A stretch of 34,813 bases of DNA from Candidatus Daviesbacteria bacterium (GTDB lineage: Bacteria > Patescibacteriota > Microgenomatia > Daviesbacterales > UBA10151), in contig CP066688.1 in the NCBI GenBank assembly GCA_016432425.1, positions 409,398 through 444,210 on the forward strand, in the 5' to 3' direction. Under the pieces are notes generated by a model that was not told the DNA's origin, did not search any database, and worked only from the letters and a program-made list of their open reading frames with translations. Both the position numbers and the translations under genes were made by a program. How positions within the stretch are numbered: the stretch's first letter is position 1; each line of letters begins with the position of its first letter. Of this stretch, positions 1,954 through 21,058 are shown in pieces.

Positions 1954-2060
1954 GGTTGCATAGTATATTTTTCAGATGAAAATAGCAGCCAAAAAATAGT
2001 AAGGGATTAGCAAGAGTGTTTAATTAGGAATACACTAACCTTCAGTTGATATTTACTCAA

Positions 2061-2089
2061 TTGACATTTCTTGGTTCGCAATCTATTAT
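2061..2089 (+). promoter_or_regulatory. sigma70-type promoter, predicted leaderless start at 2097
   Basis: TTGACA 2061-2066, 17-nt spacer, TATTAT 2084-2089. The ATG at 2097 lies 7 nt downstream and has no SD. Confidence 0.45.
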
Positions 2090-2096
2090 AAAATCA

Positions 2097-2786
2097 ATGG
2101 GATATTTCGGAAAACTTGAGGAAAAATTAAAGGCTCAAGAGCTTCGTCGCCGAGGTCTTTCATATGGAGAGATACTTTTACAAATTAATGTTTCAAAGGA
2201 TACTATAAGCAGATGGTGCCGTGATATTGCCTTGACAAAAACTCAAAAAAAGAGGCTTCTTAAAAATAAAGTATTTGGGCAAAAAAAGGGTTCACAGGTT
2301 GCCGCTGAAAATAAAAGGCGAAAAAGACTTCTAAGAACTAAAGAAATTTTTGAAATATCCAAAAGTGAACTCGGAGAGTTAAATAAAAGGGATAGGTTTT
2401 TAGCCGGGATTGCTTTTTATGCCAGTGAGGGGGATAAAACTGATGGTAAAGGAGGAGTTGCTAATTCAGATCCCAGAATTATTAAATTTATGATTAAATG
2501 GTTTAAAGAGTTTTGTAAAATACCGATGTCTAAATTTAGAGGTGCTTTATGGTTACATGAAGGGTTGGATGAAGAAAAGGCTAAAAAATTTTGGTGTAAG
2601 CTAACGAATATTCCCACGCAACAGTTTCATAAGACTTATATTGCTAAGGATAAAAAGGATAGTAGAAAAATTAGAAAAAACATACATCAATACGGAGTTT
2701 TTGCAATTAGATTTAGTGATGCAGATAAGCAGAGACGAATCATGGGGTGGATTTCAGCTTTGGTAGATGATAGAATTCAAAAGTAG
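2097..2786 (+). CDS. helix-turn-helix plus LAGLIDADG-like homing-endonuclease-like protein (putative)
   Basis: The ORF track gives 2046-2786. I prefer the ATG at 2097 (MGYFGKLEE) because of the promoter position. The N-terminus has an HTH-like segment (LSYGEILLQINVSKDTISRWCRD). The central FLAGIAFYASEGDK resembles a LAGLIDADG motif. The gene ends 17 nt before the intron-containing tRNA. Confidence 0.5.
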   Translation: MGYFGKLEEKLKAQELRRRGLSYGEILLQINVSKDTISRWCRDIALTKTQKKRLLKNKVFGQKKGSQVAAENKRRKRLLRTKEIFEISKSELGELNKRDRFLAGIAFYASEGDKTDGKGGVANSDPRIIKFMIKWFKEFCKIPMSKFRGALWLHEGLDEEKAKKFWCKLTNIPTQQFHKTYIAKDKKDSRKIRKNIHQYGVFAIRFSDADKQRRIMGWISALVDDRIQK

Positions 2787-2802: not shown

Positions 2803-3061
2803 TCCCCTGTAGCTCAACGGTAGAGCGAGTCGCTGTAATAGTTAGCAGCCTTCGAGGGAAACTTCGGAGTGATAAGTGGGTGAATTCAAGGAAAATCTTA
2901 AGATAACCCTGAGCCAAGTCCTAAGAGAAAATCAAAGGGAAGGTGCAGAGACTAGGTGGTTACACCAATTAGCGCCCACCACCTAAAACTTTTTAGTCAT
3001 GGTGATGAGATAGTCCATTAAAGTAACGACGAGGTTGTAGGTTCGAATCCTACCGGGGGAG
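2803..3061 (+). tRNA. tRNA-Asn(GUU) interrupted by a group I intron (exons 2803-2836 and 3024-3061)
   Basis: The joined exons fold as a cloverleaf: acceptor TCCCCTG/CGGGGGA, D arm GCTC-AACGGTA-GAGC, anticodon stem AGTCG/CGACG, loop CTGT+TAA = CUGUUAA, T arm GTAGG-TTCGAAT-CCTAC, discriminator G. CCA is not encoded. The layout closely parallels E. coli tRNA-Asn as I recall it. Confidence 0.8.
2837..3023 (+). ncRNA. group I intron (IC3-like, 187 nt, no internal ORF)
   Basis: P1: exon GCTGT 2832-2836 pairs with GCAGC 2845-2849, giving a U.G pair at the splice site. P10: TTA 2842-2844 pairs with exon TAA 3024-3026. P2 hairpin spans 2850-2869 with a GAAA tetraloop. Conserved core strings are GAGCCAAG, GTGCAGAGACTAG (2943-2955) and GAGATAGTCC (3007-3016). 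P7 is GACTA/TAGTC. The terminal nucleotide is G3023. Confidence 0.8.
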
Positions 3062-5959: not shown

Positions 5960-8900
5960 ATGAAAAAGTATTTTACACAGTTACTGTGCCTGTGGGCTAT
6001 TGCCTTGATTGTTTTTTTGCAATTTGCGCCCCTTGGTATCTATCTAGTTGCCACTGCCCGGGCAGAGGAGGGTAGCCAGGCAGCAGTTCCAGAAGATGGA
6101 AGTGGCAGCTCTGGTTCAGGCAGCAGTGGTTCCCAGGACAGTTCCGGTTCAGGAAATAGTGGGTCAGAGTCCGGAGGTAGTTCATCAGGGCAGGATTCTT
6201 CTGGCAGCGGTTCAGGTGATAATAGTTCCGGATCAGGCAGTGAACAGCCAACAAACAATACAGATACTAATAGTAATTCTGGCTCTTCCGGCAGTGATAC
6301 AACTACACAAGATCCTCCCCAAGACAGCAGCGGCTCAGGATCTGGGACAGAGTCTACCAGTGGTTCCGGAAGTTCTGGATCAGGTAATGAAGATATTCAA
6401 ATAACACCTCCGGAAAATGTACCGGCAGATGAAGGTAGTAATTCCGGTTCTGGATCAGGTGGTGGTTCCCAGGACAGCTCCGGTTCAGGCAGTGGTGGAT
6501 CAGAGAATACTGCTCCGACACCTGACTCATCTGGGAGTGGGTCTGGAAGTTCCGGATCAGGCAGCGGAGGGGGTAATACAGAAAATGGTAGTTCAGGGCC
6601 AGGTAACGGGGAAGTGGGCAATGAACCACCGGCTGATGAACCACCAGTAGCAGAAGAACCTCCGGTTGGTGGAGAGCCTCCTGCTGAGGAGCCACCTGCT
6701 AATGAGGTCCCATCTGATAGCCAACCTCCTGCTAACGACACATCAGGCGACCAGTTGCCTCCGGTACTTGGCGATCCCCTGGCAGGCCCTACTGATCCCT
6801 CAAACGGTTTCCCTCTTCTATATAGGGATGCCTTGGGTCAGGTGGTGGCGGCCTGTCTTGAAGGGACAGACCCCAACTGTGTTCTGCCCGGAGCTGGAGA
6901 AGAGGCTAATTTTGACCCCAACCAGCCCACAGATTTTCCTGATAACTTCCCATCAGAGTTTTTCTATTGGATTGCTGAATCAGACAAGCTAAGTACACCG
7001 CTGGACGGAAAGTTATCTTTCCGGATGGCTTTGGAAGGAGCATTCTTAAATGAAGATCCGGCTGAAGGTGACCAGATGGTCTTTGGCAGGATCAGGTTAA
7101 CAGGAACAGGACTTGAACCAAACTCCCTCTATACTGTGACCCATCCTTATGGGGTGGATACTTATGAAACAAACGATGTAGGTATAGTGAGAAGAGGAGA
7201 TGGGACAGAGGATATTGGCTGTGAGGTTGGACCCTGTGATTTCTCTTTGGCTCTGGGTAGCAGAATCTTCGACGGGTTTTTGGGAATGGCCGAGGGTGCA
7301 CCTGCGGGTTACCTGGGTGATGGAGCGACATTGGGAGAAGTGACCGGCAGTCCTTTGGGTCAGAACTTCTTTAGAATTGAAGGGCCGGGACTACCCTTGG
7401 GCGGATTATTCACCAATCTTTTTACGGTGGCCGGTAAACTGTTCTCCGGCATTATTCCTCCAGTTGAACCACCGGTAAAAGGGCCTCCTGCTGAAGAGCC
7501 ACCAGCACAAGAACCACCGGTTGTGGGTGAGCCGGGAGATCCGGGAGCTGGTCTAATCGATCCCTCAAATGGCTTCCCTCTTTTCTATCAGGATGTTCTG
7601 GGTACTGCAGTTGGTGCCTGTCTTGACGGATCAGACCCTATCTGTGTCTTACCGGGAGCTGGAGAAGAGGCTAACTTTGACCCTAACCAGCCCACAGTCT
7701 TTTCCACTAACTTCCCCTCTGAGTTCTTCTATTGGATTGCCGAATCAGACCAAATTGGTATTCCAGATACTGGTGGTAAATTTATGTTCAGGATGGCAGT
7801 AGAAGGAGCATTTCTAGGTGAGGATCCAATACCTGGTGATCAGATGGTCTTTGGCAGGTTGAGGGCCACAGGTACAGGTTTAGTTCCTAACTCTACCTAT
7901 ACTGTCACTCATCCATATGGAGTAGATACCTATGTGACCAATGCTGTAGGGGTAATGCCCAGAAATTCCTCCACAGAGGATATTGGTTGTGAAGTTGGGC
8001 CTTGTGATTTCTCTTTAGCTTTAGCTAGCAGAGTTTTCCAAAGTTTCCTGCAATGGGACTCTGGAGCCCCTTTAGGTTATTTAGGGGATGCCATTACTCC
8101 ACACGCTGTGATTGGTTCCCCTACAGGTAACAATTTTGTCAGGATTGAAGGTCCCGGGCTTCCCTTGGGAGGTCTTTTAACCAACTTATTTACTGTCTCA
8201 GGCAAACTGTTCTCTGAGCTGATTAATCCGGAAGAACCACCAGTTAATAACCAACCACCTGTCAGTGATTCTCCTTCTGATGAGCCACCAGTAGCAGAAG
8301 AACCTCCGGTTGGTGGAGAGCCTCCTGCTGAGGAGCCACCTGCTGACGAAGTCCCATCCGATAACCAACTTCCTGCTGATGATACACCAAGTGATCAGCT
8401 ACCTGATGATAACCCGCCTGCCAATGAACCACCAGCTGATAATCCACCTGCTACTGATAATCCAACAGACAACAATGTGGGGTCAACACCACCTAGTGGT
8501 AGTGAGAATACCACTGATGGGAGTTCTCAGACAGGTGATAGTTCTCAAACAGGCACCACTGGAACCCAGACCAGTACCAATACAAATCAATCATCAACTA
8601 CTAGCAGCTCCGGCGGTGGTTCCAGTACCACTTCATCAAATACCAGTTCATCAAATAATAGTAGCAGCAGCCAATCATCCAGTTCAGACAACAATAGTTC
8701 CAACAACCAGACATCTTCTATATCTGAATCAGAACAAACAAGTACCACAGAAGATAAAAAACCTGAAAATCAAACCCTGGTTTTAGGGACACAAATCTCT
8801 CAAAATTCGCAAAACTCGGAGGGTGATGGAGAGGTACTGGCAGCTGAGCAAGTAGGGTCAAATGAAGCTGTTGCACAAGAGACTCAAGCAGCAGGGACAA

Positions 8901-8989
8901 ATCCGGTGGCTACCTTGTTGGCAATCAGCGCTTTGGCTATGGCAGGTGGATTTTTATCCATTAAATCACTTCTAGCACTCAAACATTAA
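5960..8989 (+). CDS. large secreted/cell-surface protein: signal peptide, Ser/Gly-rich and Pro/Glu-rich spacers, two tandem ~227-aa Cys-containing domains, Ser/Thr-rich stalk, C-terminal TM anchor
   Basis: 1009-aa ORF. The N-terminal signal-like helix ends at ATARA-EEG. The C-terminus VATLLAISALAMAGGFLSIKSLLALKH is hydrophobic. The internal duplication is visible directly. There is no LPXTG motif. Confidence 0.8.
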   Translation: MKKYFTQLLCLWAIALIVFLQFAPLGIYLVATARAEEGSQAAVPEDGSGSSGSGSSGSQDSSGSGNSGSESGGSSSGQDSSGSGSGDNSSGSGSEQPTNNTDTNSNSGSSGSDTTTQDPPQDSSGSGSGTESTSGSGSSGSGNEDIQITPPENVPADEGSNSGSGSGGGSQDSSGSGSGGSENTAPTPDSSGSGSGSSGSGSGGGNTENGSSGPGNGEVGNEPPADEPPVAEEPPVGGEPPAEEPPANEVPSDSQPPANDTSGDQLPPVLGDPLAGPTDPSNGFPLLYRDALGQVVAACLEGTDPNCVLPGAGEEANFDPNQPTDFPDNFPSEFFYWIAESDKLSTPLDGKLSFRMALEGAFLNEDPAEGDQMVFGRIRLTGTGLEPNSLYTVTHPYGVDTYETNDVGIVRRGDGTEDIGCEVGPCDFSLALGSRIFDGFLGMAEGAPAGYLGDGATLGEVTGSPLGQNFFRIEGPGLPLGGLFTNLFTVAGKLFSGIIPPVEPPVKGPPAEEPPAQEPPVVGEPGDPGAGLIDPSNGFPLFYQDVLGTAVGACLDGSDPICVLPGAGEEANFDPNQPTVFSTNFPSEFFYWIAESDQIGIPDTGGKFMFRMAVEGAFLGEDPIPGDQMVFGRLRATGTGLVPNSTYTVTHPYGVDTYVTNAVGVMPRNSSTEDIGCEVGPCDFSLALASRVFQSFLQWDSGAPLGYLGDAITPHAVIGSPTGNNFVRIEGPGLPLGGLLTNLFTVSGKLFSELINPEEPPVNNQPPVSDSPSDEPPVAEEPPVGGEPPAEEPPADEVPSDNQLPADDTPSDQLPDDNPPANEPPADNPPATDNPTDNNVGSTPPSGSENTTDGSSQTGDSSQTGTTGTQTSTNTNQSSTTSSSGGGSSTTSSNTSSSNNSSSSQSSSSDNNSSNNQTSSISESEQTSTTEDKKPENQTLVLGTQISQNSQNSEGDGEVLAAEQVGSNEAVAQETQAAGTNPVATLLAISALAMAGGFLSIKSLLALKH
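6641..6700 (+). repeat. 60-nt perfect direct repeat, copy 1 (Pro/Glu linker EPPVAEEPPVGGEPPAEEPPA)
   Basis: Identical to 8285-8344. Similarity extends over roughly 6636-6760 versus 8279-8403. Confidence 0.9.
6770..7450 (+). repeat. tandem domain repeat, copy 1 (GDPLAGPTDPSNGFPLLYRD ... FTVAGKLFSG)
   Basis: It aligns colinearly with 7535-8218 at roughly 70 percent amino-acid identity by eye. The four Cys are conserved (ACLxGxDPxCVLPG and IGCEVGPCDF). Confidence 0.85.
7535..8218 (+). repeat. tandem domain repeat, copy 2 (GDPGAGLIDPSNGFPLFYQD ... FTVSGKLFSE)
   Basis: See copy 1. Confidence 0.85.
8285..8344 (+). repeat. 60-nt perfect direct repeat, copy 2
   Basis: Identical to 6641-6700. Confidence 0.9.
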
Positions 8990-16529: not shown

Positions 16530-18875
16530 ATGGAAGTTGTCCAAAATACTGGTCCGGATATTTTAACCATAATAGTAGCCATTGTGGCAGTGGCTGGTTT
16601 GGCATTGCTCTCTTTGGGGCTGGTAGTTTATTTTTGGAAATATTTTGTGGGTTGGATTAAATATAAAGAACGGGAAAAAAATTCCCTGGAATATGTACTG
16701 CTGCAAATTATTGTCCCTAAGGATAATGAGATCAAGATTGATGCTGCTGAGCAATTTTTTGCCACCTTAGCTTCCATTAAAAAATCAACCGGCAAATATT
16801 TCGGAAATTTTAAATCCCAGCCGCACATCTCTTTTGAGCTGGTGGCTTTGCATGAATCAATCAGATTTTATATCTCTTGCCATAAATCCCACCAAGATTT
16901 AATTGAGCGCCAAATTAACGGTGCTTATCCGGACGCTGAGATTAAAGAGGTGCCGGAGTATAATATTTTCTCCGAAGAAGGGCAAACCGCCTATGCCCAA
17001 CTAAAACTGCGGGCAGCGGATTATTTACCCATTAAAACTTTTCGCGATTTGCCCACTGACCCACTGTCTGCTTTAACTTCTGCCCTGGCCAAGATGCAAG
17101 TGGGGGAGGGGGCAGTAGTCCAGATGCTAATTTCTCCGGCAGATAATTTATGGAAAGACGCGGGCAAAAAATGGCTCAAGAAAGAAAAAGACCCGGGTAA
17201 ACCGGATAGTCCCAAACCTCCACCAGATGCCAAACAAATTGAGGCCGTGGAGAATAAACTGGCTAAACCTGGTTTTAATACTACCATTAGAATTGTCACT
17301 TCCTCATCCTCAAAGGATAATGCTAAAGCTCATTTAACCAATATCCGCTCCGCTTTTGAACAATTTTCCGGTCCTTATAATTCTTTTTCCGGTGACAAAA
17401 TTAAATCTGAGAGCGCTTTTATGACTGATTTTATTTATCGTTTTTTGCCCCGTTTTGCCAAAATGTCAGTGTTGACCTCGGATGAGCTGGCTTCAGTTTT
17501 CCATTTCCCCAGCAAAGCCGTGGAAACCCCGTATATCTCCTGGTTATCTTCTAAACGTGCTCCTGCTCCGGAAAAAATCCCCACCACCGGGCTTTACATC
17601 GGCAAATCGCAATTCCGGGGAGTGGAGCGGCCCATCTACATTGGAGAAGAAGATCGTACCCGTCATATGTACATTGCCGGGCGGACCGGTACCGGTAAAA
17701 CCCAACTGCTCAAACAGATGATGATCCAAGATATTTATGCCGGCAAGGGAATTTGTTTTATTGATCCCCATGGTGATGCGGCAGAGGAGCTATTGGAACT
17801 AATTCCGCCCCAGCGGGCAGAAGATGTAATCTATTTTGACCCCGGAGATCTCCTGCGGCCTTTTGGGTTAAACATGTTGGAGGCTTACAACGACGAGCAA
17901 AAACACTTCGTCACCGCCAATATCATTGGTTTAATGTACAAACTATTTGACCCTCAACATACCGGTATCATCGGGCCTCGCTTTGAACACGGAGTCCGCA
18001 ACGCCATGTTGACCGCCATGGCCAAGCCGGGGGCAACTTTTGTCGAGGTGATGCGGATTATGACCGATTCGGAGTTTGTGCGGGAGCTTCTTCCCCTGGT
18101 GGATGATCCGGTGGTGCGGCGTTACTGGACTGACCAAATCGCCCAGACCTCTGATTTTCACAAATCAGAGGTGTTGGATTATACTGTTTCCAAATTTGGC
18201 CGTTTCGTCACCAATAAAATGATGCGCAATATTATTGGCCAGAGTAAATCCAGCTTTGATTTTCGGGAAGTGATGGACCAGGGGAAGATTTTAATTGTCA
18301 ATTTATCCAAAGGGAAAATTGGGGAAGAAAACTCCAACTTTTTGGGGTTGGTGTTGGTGCCTAAGATTTTGGCCGCCGCCATGAGCAGGTCTAATATCCC
18401 CATGCCAGAGCGGCGCCCTTTTTATCTTTATGTTGACGAGTTTCAAAACTTTGCCACGGAAACTTTTGCTGATATTTTATCTGAGGCTAGAAAATACCAA
18501 TTAAACTTAATCGTGGCTAACCAATTTATTGGCCAAATTGGGGAAGAGCTCAAAAATGCGGTTTTTGGTAACGTTGGTACCTTGATTGCTTTCCGGGTGG
18601 GGGTGACAGATGCCAATTACTTGCAGCATGAATTTAGCCCCACTTTTTCTGAGAACGATCTGGTTAATGTGGAGATTTTTAATGCCTACATCAAAACAAT
18701 TGTTAATGGGGAGCCGGTAGTACCCTTTTCCATTAATACTAAACCTGACTTTGACAGGTTAAAACAACTGAGTAATCCTCAGGTGGCTGCCGCCATTAAA
18801 GAGTTGTCCCGTTTAAAATACGGCCGGGATGTGACAGGGGTGGAAGCGGAAATTGTCATCAGAGCCAAATTATAG
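16530..18875 (+). CDS. membrane-anchored P-loop ATPase of the TraD/VirD4/TraG (type IV coupling protein-like, FtsK-HerA superfamily) type
   Basis: N-terminal TM helix, Walker A GRTGTGKT, Walker B FYLYVDEFQNF, and LSEARKYQLNLIVANQ resembling the TraG/TraD C-terminal region. Confidence 0.7.
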   Translation: MEVVQNTGPDILTIIVAIVAVAGLALLSLGLVVYFWKYFVGWIKYKEREKNSLEYVLLQIIVPKDNEIKIDAAEQFFATLASIKKSTGKYFGNFKSQPHISFELVALHESIRFYISCHKSHQDLIERQINGAYPDAEIKEVPEYNIFSEEGQTAYAQLKLRAADYLPIKTFRDLPTDPLSALTSALAKMQVGEGAVVQMLISPADNLWKDAGKKWLKKEKDPGKPDSPKPPPDAKQIEAVENKLAKPGFNTTIRIVTSSSSKDNAKAHLTNIRSAFEQFSGPYNSFSGDKIKSESAFMTDFIYRFLPRFAKMSVLTSDELASVFHFPSKAVETPYISWLSSKRAPAPEKIPTTGLYIGKSQFRGVERPIYIGEEDRTRHMYIAGRTGTGKTQLLKQMMIQDIYAGKGICFIDPHGDAAEELLELIPPQRAEDVIYFDPGDLLRPFGLNMLEAYNDEQKHFVTANIIGLMYKLFDPQHTGIIGPRFEHGVRNAMLTAMAKPGATFVEVMRIMTDSEFVRELLPLVDDPVVRRYWTDQIAQTSDFHKSEVLDYTVSKFGRFVTNKMMRNIIGQSKSSFDFREVMDQGKILIVNLSKGKIGEENSNFLGLVLVPKILAAAMSRSNIPMPERRPFYLYVDEFQNFATETFADILSEARKYQLNLIVANQFIGQIGEELKNAVFGNVGTLIAFRVGVTDANYLQHEFSPTFSENDLVNVEIFNAYIKTIVNGEPVVPFSINTKPDFDRLKQLSNPQVAAAIKELSRLKYGRDVTGVEAEIVIRAKL

Positions 18876-18892: not shown

Positions 18893-18966
18893 AGGCCCGT
18901 TGCATAATGGTAGTGCCTCACTCTTATACAGTGATGGTGAGGGTTCAATTCCTTCCGGGCCTACCA
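18893..18966 (+). tRNA. tRNA-Ile with encoded UAU anticodon (CCA encoded)
   Basis: Acceptor AGGCCCG/CGGGCCT, D arm GCAT-AATGGTA-GTGC, anticodon stem TCACT/AGTGA (5 perfect pairs), loop CTTATAC (TAT at 18925-18927), T arm GAGGG-TTCAATT-CCTTC, discriminator A, then CCA. Confidence 0.8.
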
Positions 18967-18968
18967 AT

Positions 18969-19832
18969 TTATAATTCTTCTAATTTGACCTTGCTGTTTT
19001 GGGACTGAGGAGAGACAAATTGGAGGTATTTTTCAGTAGTAGACAGTCTCTTGTGGCCGGCTAACTTGGATACTACCAAAAGCGAGGCCCCGCTTTGCAG
19101 TTGGTGGGCTACCCAGGTATGCCTTAAATCATTAACTTTGGCATTTTTAATTTCCGCAATCCGAAAATAGCGGTCAATGGCAGTCCTGATGTTGCGGATT
19201 AATAAGGGTTTGCCGGTTTTGGTAATAAATAAGGCATGAGCAGGGGATTTAGGCCTGACACTTAAATATTTTTTAATGGCTTCAGCCACGGAATTATTTA
19301 AAGGAATGTCTCGCTCAACTGTCCCTTCAAATTGGGGGACATGGATAGTTTGGTTTCCAAAATTAACATCTTCCACCCTTAAGTGTGCCAGTTCACCAAT
19401 CCTAATACCGGTTTGTAAAAGTAGCTCAATAACAGCTGATAAACGAACGTCAGCTCTGGCCGCATCCCGGAGCGCCCGGTATTCAATTTTGGATAAAATC
19501 CGGGGTGGTTTAGTTTCAAATTTAGGGTGTTGTAAGTTGGAAGCCGGATCTTCGGTAATAGCTCCGGCTGATCTTAAGAACTTAAAAAAGGTTTTAGTAG
19601 AGTTGGTTTTGCGGGAGATAGATTTGGCAGTGTAGCTTTCTTTGGATAATTTTTCCATAAAGGCTTGCAAATCTTCGAAACTAACTTCATCCACAGTTAC
19701 TTTCCCCAGGGAATTTAAAAAGCTGACCAGTTGATCAATATCCTTACCATAAGCTAAGATAGTGGCACTGGCAGAAGATCTGCCTTGTAGGTGGCCAATA
19801 AATTGTTGGTGGGCGTCTTTTAAGCTAATCAT
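18969..19832 (-). CDS. site-specific tyrosine recombinase (XerC/XerD/integrase family)
   Basis: It has an N-terminal SAM-like domain and the C-terminal catalytic residues pattern (...RHTWVAHQL..., GHKRLSTTEKY). The first ATG is at 19832. The ORF track start 19841 is a TTG. The stop is 3 nt from the tRNA-Ile 3' end. Confidence 0.85.
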   Translation of the reverse strand: MISLKDAHQQFIGHLQGRSSASATILAYGKDIDQLVSFLNSLGKVTVDEVSFEDLQAFMEKLSKESYTAKSISRKTNSTKTFFKFLRSAGAITEDPASNLQHPKFETKPPRILSKIEYRALRDAARADVRLSAVIELLLQTGIRIGELAHLRVEDVNFGNQTIHVPQFEGTVERDIPLNNSVAEAIKKYLSVRPKSPAHALFITKTGKPLLIRNIRTAIDRYFRIAEIKNAKVNDLRHTWVAHQLQSGASLLVVSKLAGHKRLSTTEKYLQFVSPQSQNSKVKLEEL

Positions 19833-19849
19833 AGTCTGCAAGCATGTAT

Positions 19850-20629: not shown

Positions 20630-20677
20630 AGTTTTATGATTGTATACTGGTGAGTATTTGTCAATGAAGATCTTATG

Positions 20678-20749
20678 TTGCGGGGGTAGGAGTTGAACCT
20701 ACTACCTAGAGATTATGAGCCTCCCGTGCAACCGTTACACTTCCCCGCG
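20678..20749 (-). tRNA. tRNA-Met(CAU), initiator-like
   Basis: Minus-strand sequence: CGCGGGG AA GTGT AACGGTT GCAC G GGAGG CTCATAA TCTCT AGGTA GTAGG TTCAACT CCTAC CCCCGCA A. There is a C1xA72 mismatch and A73, as in bacterial initiators. CCA is not encoded. Confidence 0.8.
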
Positions 20750-20938: not shown

Positions 20939-21010
20939 GGCAGCGTAGCTCAGCGGTAGAGCGGAGCCCTCATAAAGCTTAGGTCGTTGGTTCGATTCCA
21001 ACCGTTGCCA
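20939..21010 (+). tRNA. tRNA-Met(CAU), elongator-type (a lysidine-type tRNA-Ile2 cannot be excluded from sequence alone)
   Basis: GGCAGCG TA GCTC AGCGGTA GAGC G GAGCC CTCATAA AGCTT AGGTC GTTGG TTCGATT CCAAC CGTTGCC A. Position 1-72 is paired. An extended -10 TGgTATAAT lies upstream at 20886-20894. Confidence 0.75.
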
Positions 21011-21058
21011 CATTCGGTTCAGTCCCCACCCCTGCTACTTTTGTATTAATACTAGAAA

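Follow-up and report, generated by a model that had tools for sequence, protein, structure and literature searches.

The window analysed here, 34,813 nt of a Candidatus Daviesbacteria genome, is cellular rather than viral: the proteins encoded on it include FtsH, DNA polymerase I, Fpg, and Trp/Tyr-tRNA synthetase-family, thioredoxin-reductase-like, ECF sigma and DUF5667 proteins. Close to its start is a tRNA-Asn(GUU) gene that is interrupted between anticodon positions 35 and 36 by a group I intron of 187 nt (Table 1). Immediately 5' of the tRNA gene lies a gene whose product has no Pfam match. No promoter-like site was found between this upstream gene and the tRNA gene, and it is therefore plausible that the two are co-transcribed. 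Further along the window, a tRNA-Ile gene with the anticodon UAU, an uncommon one among bacteria, adjoins a tyrosine-recombinase/integrase gene and a gene for a TraG/VirD4-like coupling protein, and this region looks like the edge of a mobile element integrated at a tRNA. Two divergent tRNA genes with CAU anticodons lie about 190 nt apart, and a long ORF with a weak match to extensin-like, proline-rich repeats probably encodes a surface protein.

Table 1. Features of the split tRNA-Asn gene, its intron and other genes of the window (position 1 is the first nucleotide of the window; percentages are paired cells in the 103-sequence alignment)
Feature	Position	Strand	Description
Upstream gene	2046-2786	+	246 aa
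tRNA-Asn(GUU) gene	2803-3061	+	Split gene, exons and intron
5' exon	2803-2836	+	TCCCCTGTAGCTCAACGGTAGAGCGAGTCGCTGT; acceptor strand, D arm, 5' anticodon stem, C32 U33 G34 U35; basis ARAGORN, unspliced and spliced
Intron	2837-3023	+	187 nt; begins AATAG, ends AAAG; no ORF; basis RF00028
3' exon	3024-3061	+	U36 A37 A38, 3' anticodon stem, variable loop, T arm, acceptor strand, discriminator G
P1	2832-2836 (GCUGU) with 2845-2849 (GCAGC)	+	U2836.G2845 wobble at the 5' splice site; loop AAUAGUUA
P10 guide	2841-2844 (GUUA)	+	Can pair with 3'-exon UAAC (3024-3027); basis sequence
P2 hairpin	2850-2869	+	8 bp; GAAA tetraloop L2 at 2858-2861; recovered in the RNAfold MFE structure
P3	2876-2882 (GUGGGUG) with 2973-2979 (CGCCCAC)	+	99.7%; recovered in the MFE structure
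P4	2886-2891 with 2907-2912	+	Encloses P5; 99.5%
P5	2895-2904 (AUC-UUAA-GAU)	+	Minimal, 3 bp
P6 and P6a	2913-2944	+	P6 GCC/GGU, 100%; P6a UCCU/AGGG
P7	2948-2954 (G(A)GACUA) with 3011-3016 (UAGUCC)	+	Bulged A2949; pseudoknot with P3; 99.7%
Extra hairpin, P7.1 position	2955-2966 (GGUG-GUUA-CACC)	+	12 nt, between P7 and P3'
P8	2980-3004	+	Base CCUAAA (2982-2987) / CAUGG (2998-3002); 98.5%
J8/7 (AUGAGA) and P7 3' strand (UAGUCC)	3005-3016	+	Invariant or nearly so in 103 sequences; outside the scan pattern
3' tail	3017-3023 (AUUAAAG)	+	7 nt; ends in omega-G3023; no P9 hairpin
1009-aa ORF	5960-8989	+	Extensin-like repeats (weak match)
Coupling-protein gene	16530-18875	+	TraG/VirD4-like
tRNA-Ile(UAU) gene	18893-18966	+	
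Integrase gene	18969-19841	-	Tyrosine recombinase
tRNA gene, anticodon CAU	20677-20749	-	
tRNA gene, anticodon CAU	20939-21011	+	

An initial annotation of this DNA had proposed the exon and intron coordinates given in Table 1, all of which were confirmed on the sequence. Its identification of the insert as a group I intron was borne out by the Rfam model for that class (RF00028, Intron_gpI), which matched positions 2825-3023 of the forward strand over its full length (model 1-253; 64.3 bits at a gathering score of 50; E = 2.8e-14), and by the covariation described below. When run with intron detection on the unspliced DNA, ARAGORN reported tRNA-Asn(gtt) i(35,187), i.e., an intron after the second anticodon base, and the exons joined in silico gave a cloverleaf tRNA-Asn(gtt) with the loop CUGUUAA. 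Both the host and the 35/36 split that had been proposed are thereby supported, as are the predicted loop and the predicted end of the intron at omega-G. The spliced tRNA is 72 nt long, and only the omega-G3023 boundary yields a cloverleaf of that length. An intron-less tRNA-Asn downstream of the same conserved gene in a related locus (L244; related loci are designated by L and a number) scores 70.8 bits as a tRNA in Rfam, is equal in length to the spliced tRNA of the window and does not differ from it in the acceptor stem or the anticodon loop. CCA is not encoded in the 3' exon, and six-frame translation of the intron gave no ORF longer than 36 codons. The G+C content is 42% in the intron, 41.6% in the window and 57% in the exons.

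The gene was not detected in the intron-containing DNA by ARAGORN at its default settings or by the Rfam tRNA model, and the three tRNAs that standard detection found across the window all lie outside it. Since default tRNA finders miss the gene, a genome of this kind would wrongly appear to be without tRNA-Asn.

The anatomy of the intron was examined by projecting the helices of the window sequence onto a MAFFT alignment of 16 sequences (A1), and pairing was also followed in 103 sequences. The elements near the 5' splice site that had been predicted were present on the sequence: the GCTGT that pairs with the internal guide GCAGC to give the U.G wobble of P1, the TTA at 2842-2844 that is able to form P10 with the TAA of the 3' exon, and the P2 hairpin with its tetraloop (CTTCGAGG-GAAA-CTTCGGAG). 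The pairs CG/UA/GC/UG of P1 occur in 16/16 and 103/103 sequences, at bases that were fixed by the pattern used to find the relatives. The UUA/UAA pairs of P10 are kept in all five of the introns that lack P9 (see below), and about 69% of the corresponding cells pair across the wider family. P2 has changed on both sides at 8/8 pairs in both alignments, and at 6/8 within the P9-less subgroup.

In the core, three pairs of P3 have changed on both sides, and all four P6a pairs covary in both alignments. The six pairs of P7, the presumed guanosine-binding helix, are invariant, in a region that the scan pattern did not fix. P4 of the window contains an A2889.C2909 mismatch, the sole unpaired core cell in the alignment labelled A2; this position is A.C in 3 of the 103 sequences and a compensating A-U in four, and, besides the window, the mismatch is seen in two species and in the seed sequence Pam37. 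The hairpin at the P7.1 position is found in most relatives (it is absent from L160, L186 and L238), shows one compensating GC-to-AU change, in L192, and aligns with an optional hairpin of the Williams seed alignment. It is followed by AAUUAG before P3'. The base of P8 closely resembles the 11-nt GAAA-tetraloop receptor, being two bases off the canonical CCUAAG...UAUGG, and the relative L169 has the exact receptor motif in P8. The GAAA loop L2 may dock into this receptor-like base.

The secondary structure is conserved well beyond what misplaced helices would give: in A1, 92.7% of the cells pair, compared with 37-44% when the partners are slid. Both sides have changed at 27 of the 60 pairs, and 0 of 500 shuffles reached the observed values. 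In the 103-sequence alignment P3, P4, P6, P7 and P8 are 98.5-100% paired, and the P3-P8 core with its P3/P7 pseudoknot is supported by covariation in both alignments. The 3' half of the core (P7, P3', J8/7 and P7') is nearly invariant though it was unconstrained by the scan pattern, while the invariance of several 5' core positions is partly a product of that pattern fixing those bases. Unaided, RNAfold still finds P2, P3, P6, P8 and the extra hairpin; the thermodynamic z-score of -1.14 is unremarkable, and folding alone was uninformative.

Introns of this type have been catalogued before. The preprint of Williams (2020; bioRxiv, doi 10.1101/2020.01.27.920355) raised the number of settings of group I introns in bacterial tRNAs from 4 to 21, and its seed alignment includes Pam37.Asn.4Ug together with Tyr.4Ug, Asp.4Ug and Lys.4Ug introns. 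Group I introns were also noted in tRNAs of candidate-phyla genomes by Lui et al. (2021; PMC8172020). A literature search for group I introns in tRNA-Asn beyond the Williams preprint returned organelle or unrelated papers only, and a cyanobacterial paper that names inserts of 22-49 nt 'group I introns' was set aside as not relevant. The intron of the window has a tRNA-Asn(GUU) host, an insertion point after the fourth base of the anticodon loop (CUGU|UAA), U(-1) and omega-G. It is a further member of the Asn.4Ug class and nothing new in kind, and the initial view that an Asn host and a 35/36 site would be unusual is outdated, given the catalogued class and at least 93 further species with the same arrangement.

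The Pam37 intron has the same host tRNA, insertion point, U(-1) and omega-G as the window, and the two agree in 144 of 172 aligned columns (84% identity). The two have a core in common that comprises GGGUGAAUUCAAGGAAA; GCAGAGACUA followed by a hairpin and AGCGCCC; and AUGAGAUAGUCC. They differ in that Pam37 is about 270 nt long, with insertions in L1 and P2 and with a P9, whereas the window copy has 187 nt and no P9; the class is known from computation only. The intron of Azoarcus tRNA-Ile(CAU), an IC3 intron of 205 nt, is likewise small and located in the anticodon loop, with a GAAA-capped P2 and a P8 receptor of the CCUAAG/UAUGG type. Among its J3/4-P4, P6, P7 and J8/7 strings GAGCCAAG is an exact match to the window and GGUGUAGAGACUAGA and GGCAUAGUCC are close. 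Unlike the intron of the window, it occupies the 36/37 site of a CAU tRNA and has a P9 with a GAAA loop, a longer P5 and no hairpin between P7 and P3'. The cyanobacterial and plastid tRNA-Leu(UAA) intron, also IC3, resembles the window in its anticodon-loop position, U.G wobble and core (seed Sel1.Leu.3Ug), but is inserted at 34/35, measures about 240-250 nt, and has a P9 and no P7.1-type hairpin.

The resemblance to IC3 introns that had been noted from three core strings holds for the strings themselves (GAGCCAAG, GGTGCAGAGACTAGG and GAGATAGTCC), which were all found in the intron and are like those of the cyanobacterial and Azoarcus seeds. To place the intron strictly in IC3 was nevertheless rejected: in place of a P9 with a GNRA loop docking on P5, only seven nucleotides (AUUAAAG) follow P7, and the short, direct J7/3 of IC3 introns, free of P7.1/P7.2-type insertions, is replaced by the 12-nt hairpin, which some same-site relatives are without. 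The intron is best described, approximately, as an IC3-like core with a P7.1-type insertion. Alignment scores of the window were 48-58 with the hairpin-bearing seeds Mba55, Dba165 and Pam37, compared with 36-38 for Azoarcus (35.8) and Synechococcus. Its nearest relatives are the hairpin-bearing introns of candidate phyla (CPR) and phages.

An extra pairing between P7 and P3' is a feature of IA-type phage group I introns (T4 td, Twort). A search of viral contigs with the signature AGAGACTA-N-AGCGYCC-N-ATGAKATAGTCC (i.e., AGAGACUA-hairpin-AGCGYCC-P8-AUGAKAUAGUCC) found at least 120 stretches, and all eight of the loci tested were RF00028 matches. Most of these viral introns differ from that of the window, with its single 12-nt hairpin and no ORF, in that they are longer, lie outside tRNA genes and are often near endonuclease genes. 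A tRNA-Asn gene split by an intron of the window's type, as CTGT|...G|TAA, was nonetheless found on viral contigs of 76-543 kb (L030:129-428, reverse strand; L048:1926-2227, forward; L064:3113-3423, forward), and L030 is a phage array of nine tRNAs with genes for an HNH endonuclease, tail and baseplate nearby.

The distribution in cellular genomes was sought by scanning 185,579 species-representative genomes with the pattern CTGT-N4-12-GCAGC-N20-36-GGRTGAAYTCRRGGAA, which gave at least 120 matches. ARAGORN in intron mode often mis-split these relatives (as 'Thr(tgt)', 'Asp(gtc)' or 'His'), and their splice sites were re-mapped with U(-1), omega-G and a cloverleaf of 72-77 nt as requirements. 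Among the 120 matches listed, a tRNA-Asn(GUU) gene split at 35/36 was found in 93 further species; of the others, seven are tRNA-Tyr(GUA) split at the same place, one is tRNA-Asp, one is uncertain and 18 were not resolved. The record titles of the matches listed span more than 15 phyla, although bin names may be unreliable, and include Patescibacteria, Planctomycetota, Acidobacteriota, Nitrospirota, Binatia, Burkholderiales, Bdellovibrionota, Omnitrophota, Elusimicrobia and Margulisbacteria, among others. From these matches, the Asn 35/36 site ranks among the commonest homes of group I introns in bacterial tRNAs. The window-type introns after CUGU in tRNA-Tyr(GUA) (L137, L138, L160, L212, L214, L222 and L238) come mostly from Omnitrophota and Planctomycetes bins, and would fit a shift between tRNAs with GUN anticodons that have the CUGU target in common.

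Across the 94 Asn-hosted introns (the 93 listed and the window) lengths are between 184 and 334 nt (median 252 nt), and that of the window is the third shortest. The initial remark that the intron lies near the lower size limit of its class therefore holds against Azoarcus (205 nt), but not within the same-site group, in which 181-210 nt is common.

The surroundings of the gene are conserved as well. The upstream gene has 72% amino acid identity to the gene that precedes the split tRNA-Asn of another Ca. Daviesbacteria locus, L216, and the two loci are 73% identical over 996 nt. The same synteny with the upstream gene was seen in other Patescibacteria (L169 and L195). By these similarities the source is a Daviesbacteria-like member of the Microgenomates, in the candidate phyla radiation. 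More widely, the 246-aa ORF is conserved before tRNA-Asn in many Microgenomates-type contigs, with or without an intron (43 metagenome loci, 31-78% identity).

Searching metagenome contigs with the upstream protein made it possible to resolve 27 syntenic tRNA-Asn genes. At their 35/36 site, five have the window-type intron (lineage A), 14 have a distinct type (lineage B), two have other group I introns and six (L244, L248-L250, L272 and L275) are intron-less. The introns measure 181-250 nt, and 181-210 nt is normal there. Lineage B consists of distinct group I introns of 181-235 nt among L242-L282 (e.g., L270:2807-2983 and L251:3187-3419), with a core of TCGGGCUAAUUCGGGG...GUGUAGAGACUAUAUACCCGA (also TCGGGCTAATTCGGGG...GTGTAGAGACTATATACCCGA) that resembles that of the Wba81.Asp.4Ug seed. 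For those introns of lineages A and B and of the others that scored above the Rfam threshold, L216, L227 and L241 among them, the assignment to group I was confirmed. In the intron-less locus L275, a truncated tRNA-like 5' fragment (TCCGCGGTAGCTCAATGGTCTGG...) lies about 130 nt upstream of the intact tRNA-Asn and may be the remnant of a rearrangement.

This pattern indicates that, within a set of fairly close relatives, introns have been acquired at the 35/36 site, lost from it or exchanged for others. The introns that were resolved are all too short to hold an endonuclease gene, and reverse splicing guided by GCAG:CUGU pairing is therefore a plausible route to the site.

Five introns of 184-194 nt, those of the window, L216, L227, L192 and L241, lack P9; L216 and L227 are also Daviesbacteria. 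Most other relatives have, after P7, a 7-bp P9 with a GNRA loop, whereas L216, L227 and L192 end in the same tail as the window and L241 in AAUUAAAAG. The window, L216 and L227 share a minimal P5, and L1 of the window has a 4-nt insertion (AAUA) relative to its closest relatives. The loss of P9, common to the four close relatives, is the only distinctive trait of the window intron. In this subgroup 98.7% of the cells pair, the core is invariant, and compensating changes are found in P2 and the P7.1 hairpin. An invariant core together with compensating changes suggests that selection for a working ribozyme has continued to act on the fold since the loss of P9.

The best explanation for these observations is that the 187 nt between U35 and U36 of the tRNA-Asn(GUU) gene are a group I intron that is removed by the group I pathway, and that this intron is a P9-trimmed member of a widespread lineage; we would put the probability of this reading at roughly 85%. 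The lineage would target CUGU|N in tRNAs with GUN anticodons, mainly tRNA-Asn and in some cases tRNA-Tyr, and the window copy would be a trimmed derivative that has lost P9 and retained a P5 of only 3 bp. The intron is real and probably functional: its identity, its boundaries, its secondary structure and its conservation are established by the data above. By analogy with other group I introns we infer that it is catalytic, that it forms the tertiary contacts outlined above and that it splices independently of protein.

Splicing would be expected to follow the group I paradigm, read onto the conserved anatomy. In the precursor, P1 would arise from pairing of G31-U35 of the tRNA with the guide GCAGC, and its wobble between U35 and G2845 would mark the 5' splice site. 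The P3-P8 and P4-P6 domains would fold around P7, with L2 (GAAA) docked on the receptor-like base of P8. A free guanosine held in P7 could then attack after U2836, and omega-G3023 would next occupy the same site while GUUA (2841-2844) held the 3' exon through P10. Attack by the freed 3'-OH of U35 after G3023 would join the exons as the loop CUGUUAA and release the intron. As CCA is not encoded, the mature tRNA-Asn would be completed by CCA addition.

Without P9, and thus without the Azoarcus-type L9-P5 clamp, and with a P5 of 3 bp, the intron may fold poorly or may need protein or high Mg2+. It is in this light that a second reading has to be weighed, in which the group I intron is real but its trimmed periphery no longer stabilises the core, so that splicing in the cell depends on a chaperone- or maturase-like helper. 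The absent P9 and minimal P5 of the window, L216 and L227, the A.C mismatch in P4 and a fold energy barely better than that of shuffles are what such dependence would lead one to expect. We consider it unlikely all the same, as the L2 tetraloop and the receptor-like motif of P8 are retained and every catalytic-core position is conserved. Nor is a helper suggested by the locus: the intron has no ORF, no conserved neighbour gene suggests a cofactor, and the conserved upstream gene also adjoins intron-less alleles.

The P4 mismatch, if specific to the window, would also suit a decaying relic, i.e., an intron that no longer splices in a tRNA-Asn pseudogene that is backed by another, intact gene such as may lie in the genome beyond the window, as would the AAUA insertion in L1 and the missing P9. 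The same A.C is present in two other species and the Pam37 seed, however, and P9 is missing alike from five sequences that have diverged from one another and in which compensating changes are still seen. The exons are moreover intact and equal in length to a functional-looking allele, and genomes of the candidate phyla radiation usually carry tRNA genes in single copy, which makes decay very improbable. No point was found in favour of an assembly artefact or chimera that placed intron-like sequence inside a tRNA. The same architecture and flanking gene recur in independent assemblies (L216, L169, L195, L241 and about 20 metagenome contigs), and this explanation is in effect refuted.

A broader interpretation is offered tentatively, at somewhat less than even odds. 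The P9-less sub-lineage may be a naturally minimised ribozyme that self-splices although it has no L9-P5 clamp and its P5 is only 3 bp long, and/or the CUGU|N of GUN-anticodon tRNAs may be a hot spot that distinct ORF-less lineages have invaded repeatedly by reverse splicing, swapping copies with phage tRNA arrays. A hot spot would explain why some syntenic loci are empty and the rest have an intron of lineage A, of lineage B or of another kind. A search of the literature for a statement on the smallest group I intron gave nothing usable; a minimised ribozyme of this kind, if that is what these introns are, would rank with the smallest self-splicing group I introns found in nature, and the short P9-less form, if active, would be a natural minimal scaffold for RNA biochemistry. 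For genomes of candidate phyla, a split tRNA-Asn that is missed matters to estimates of completeness. For the intron family, the Asn 35/36 site is one common to bacterial genomes and phage tRNA arrays, at which intron lineages turn over among close relatives.
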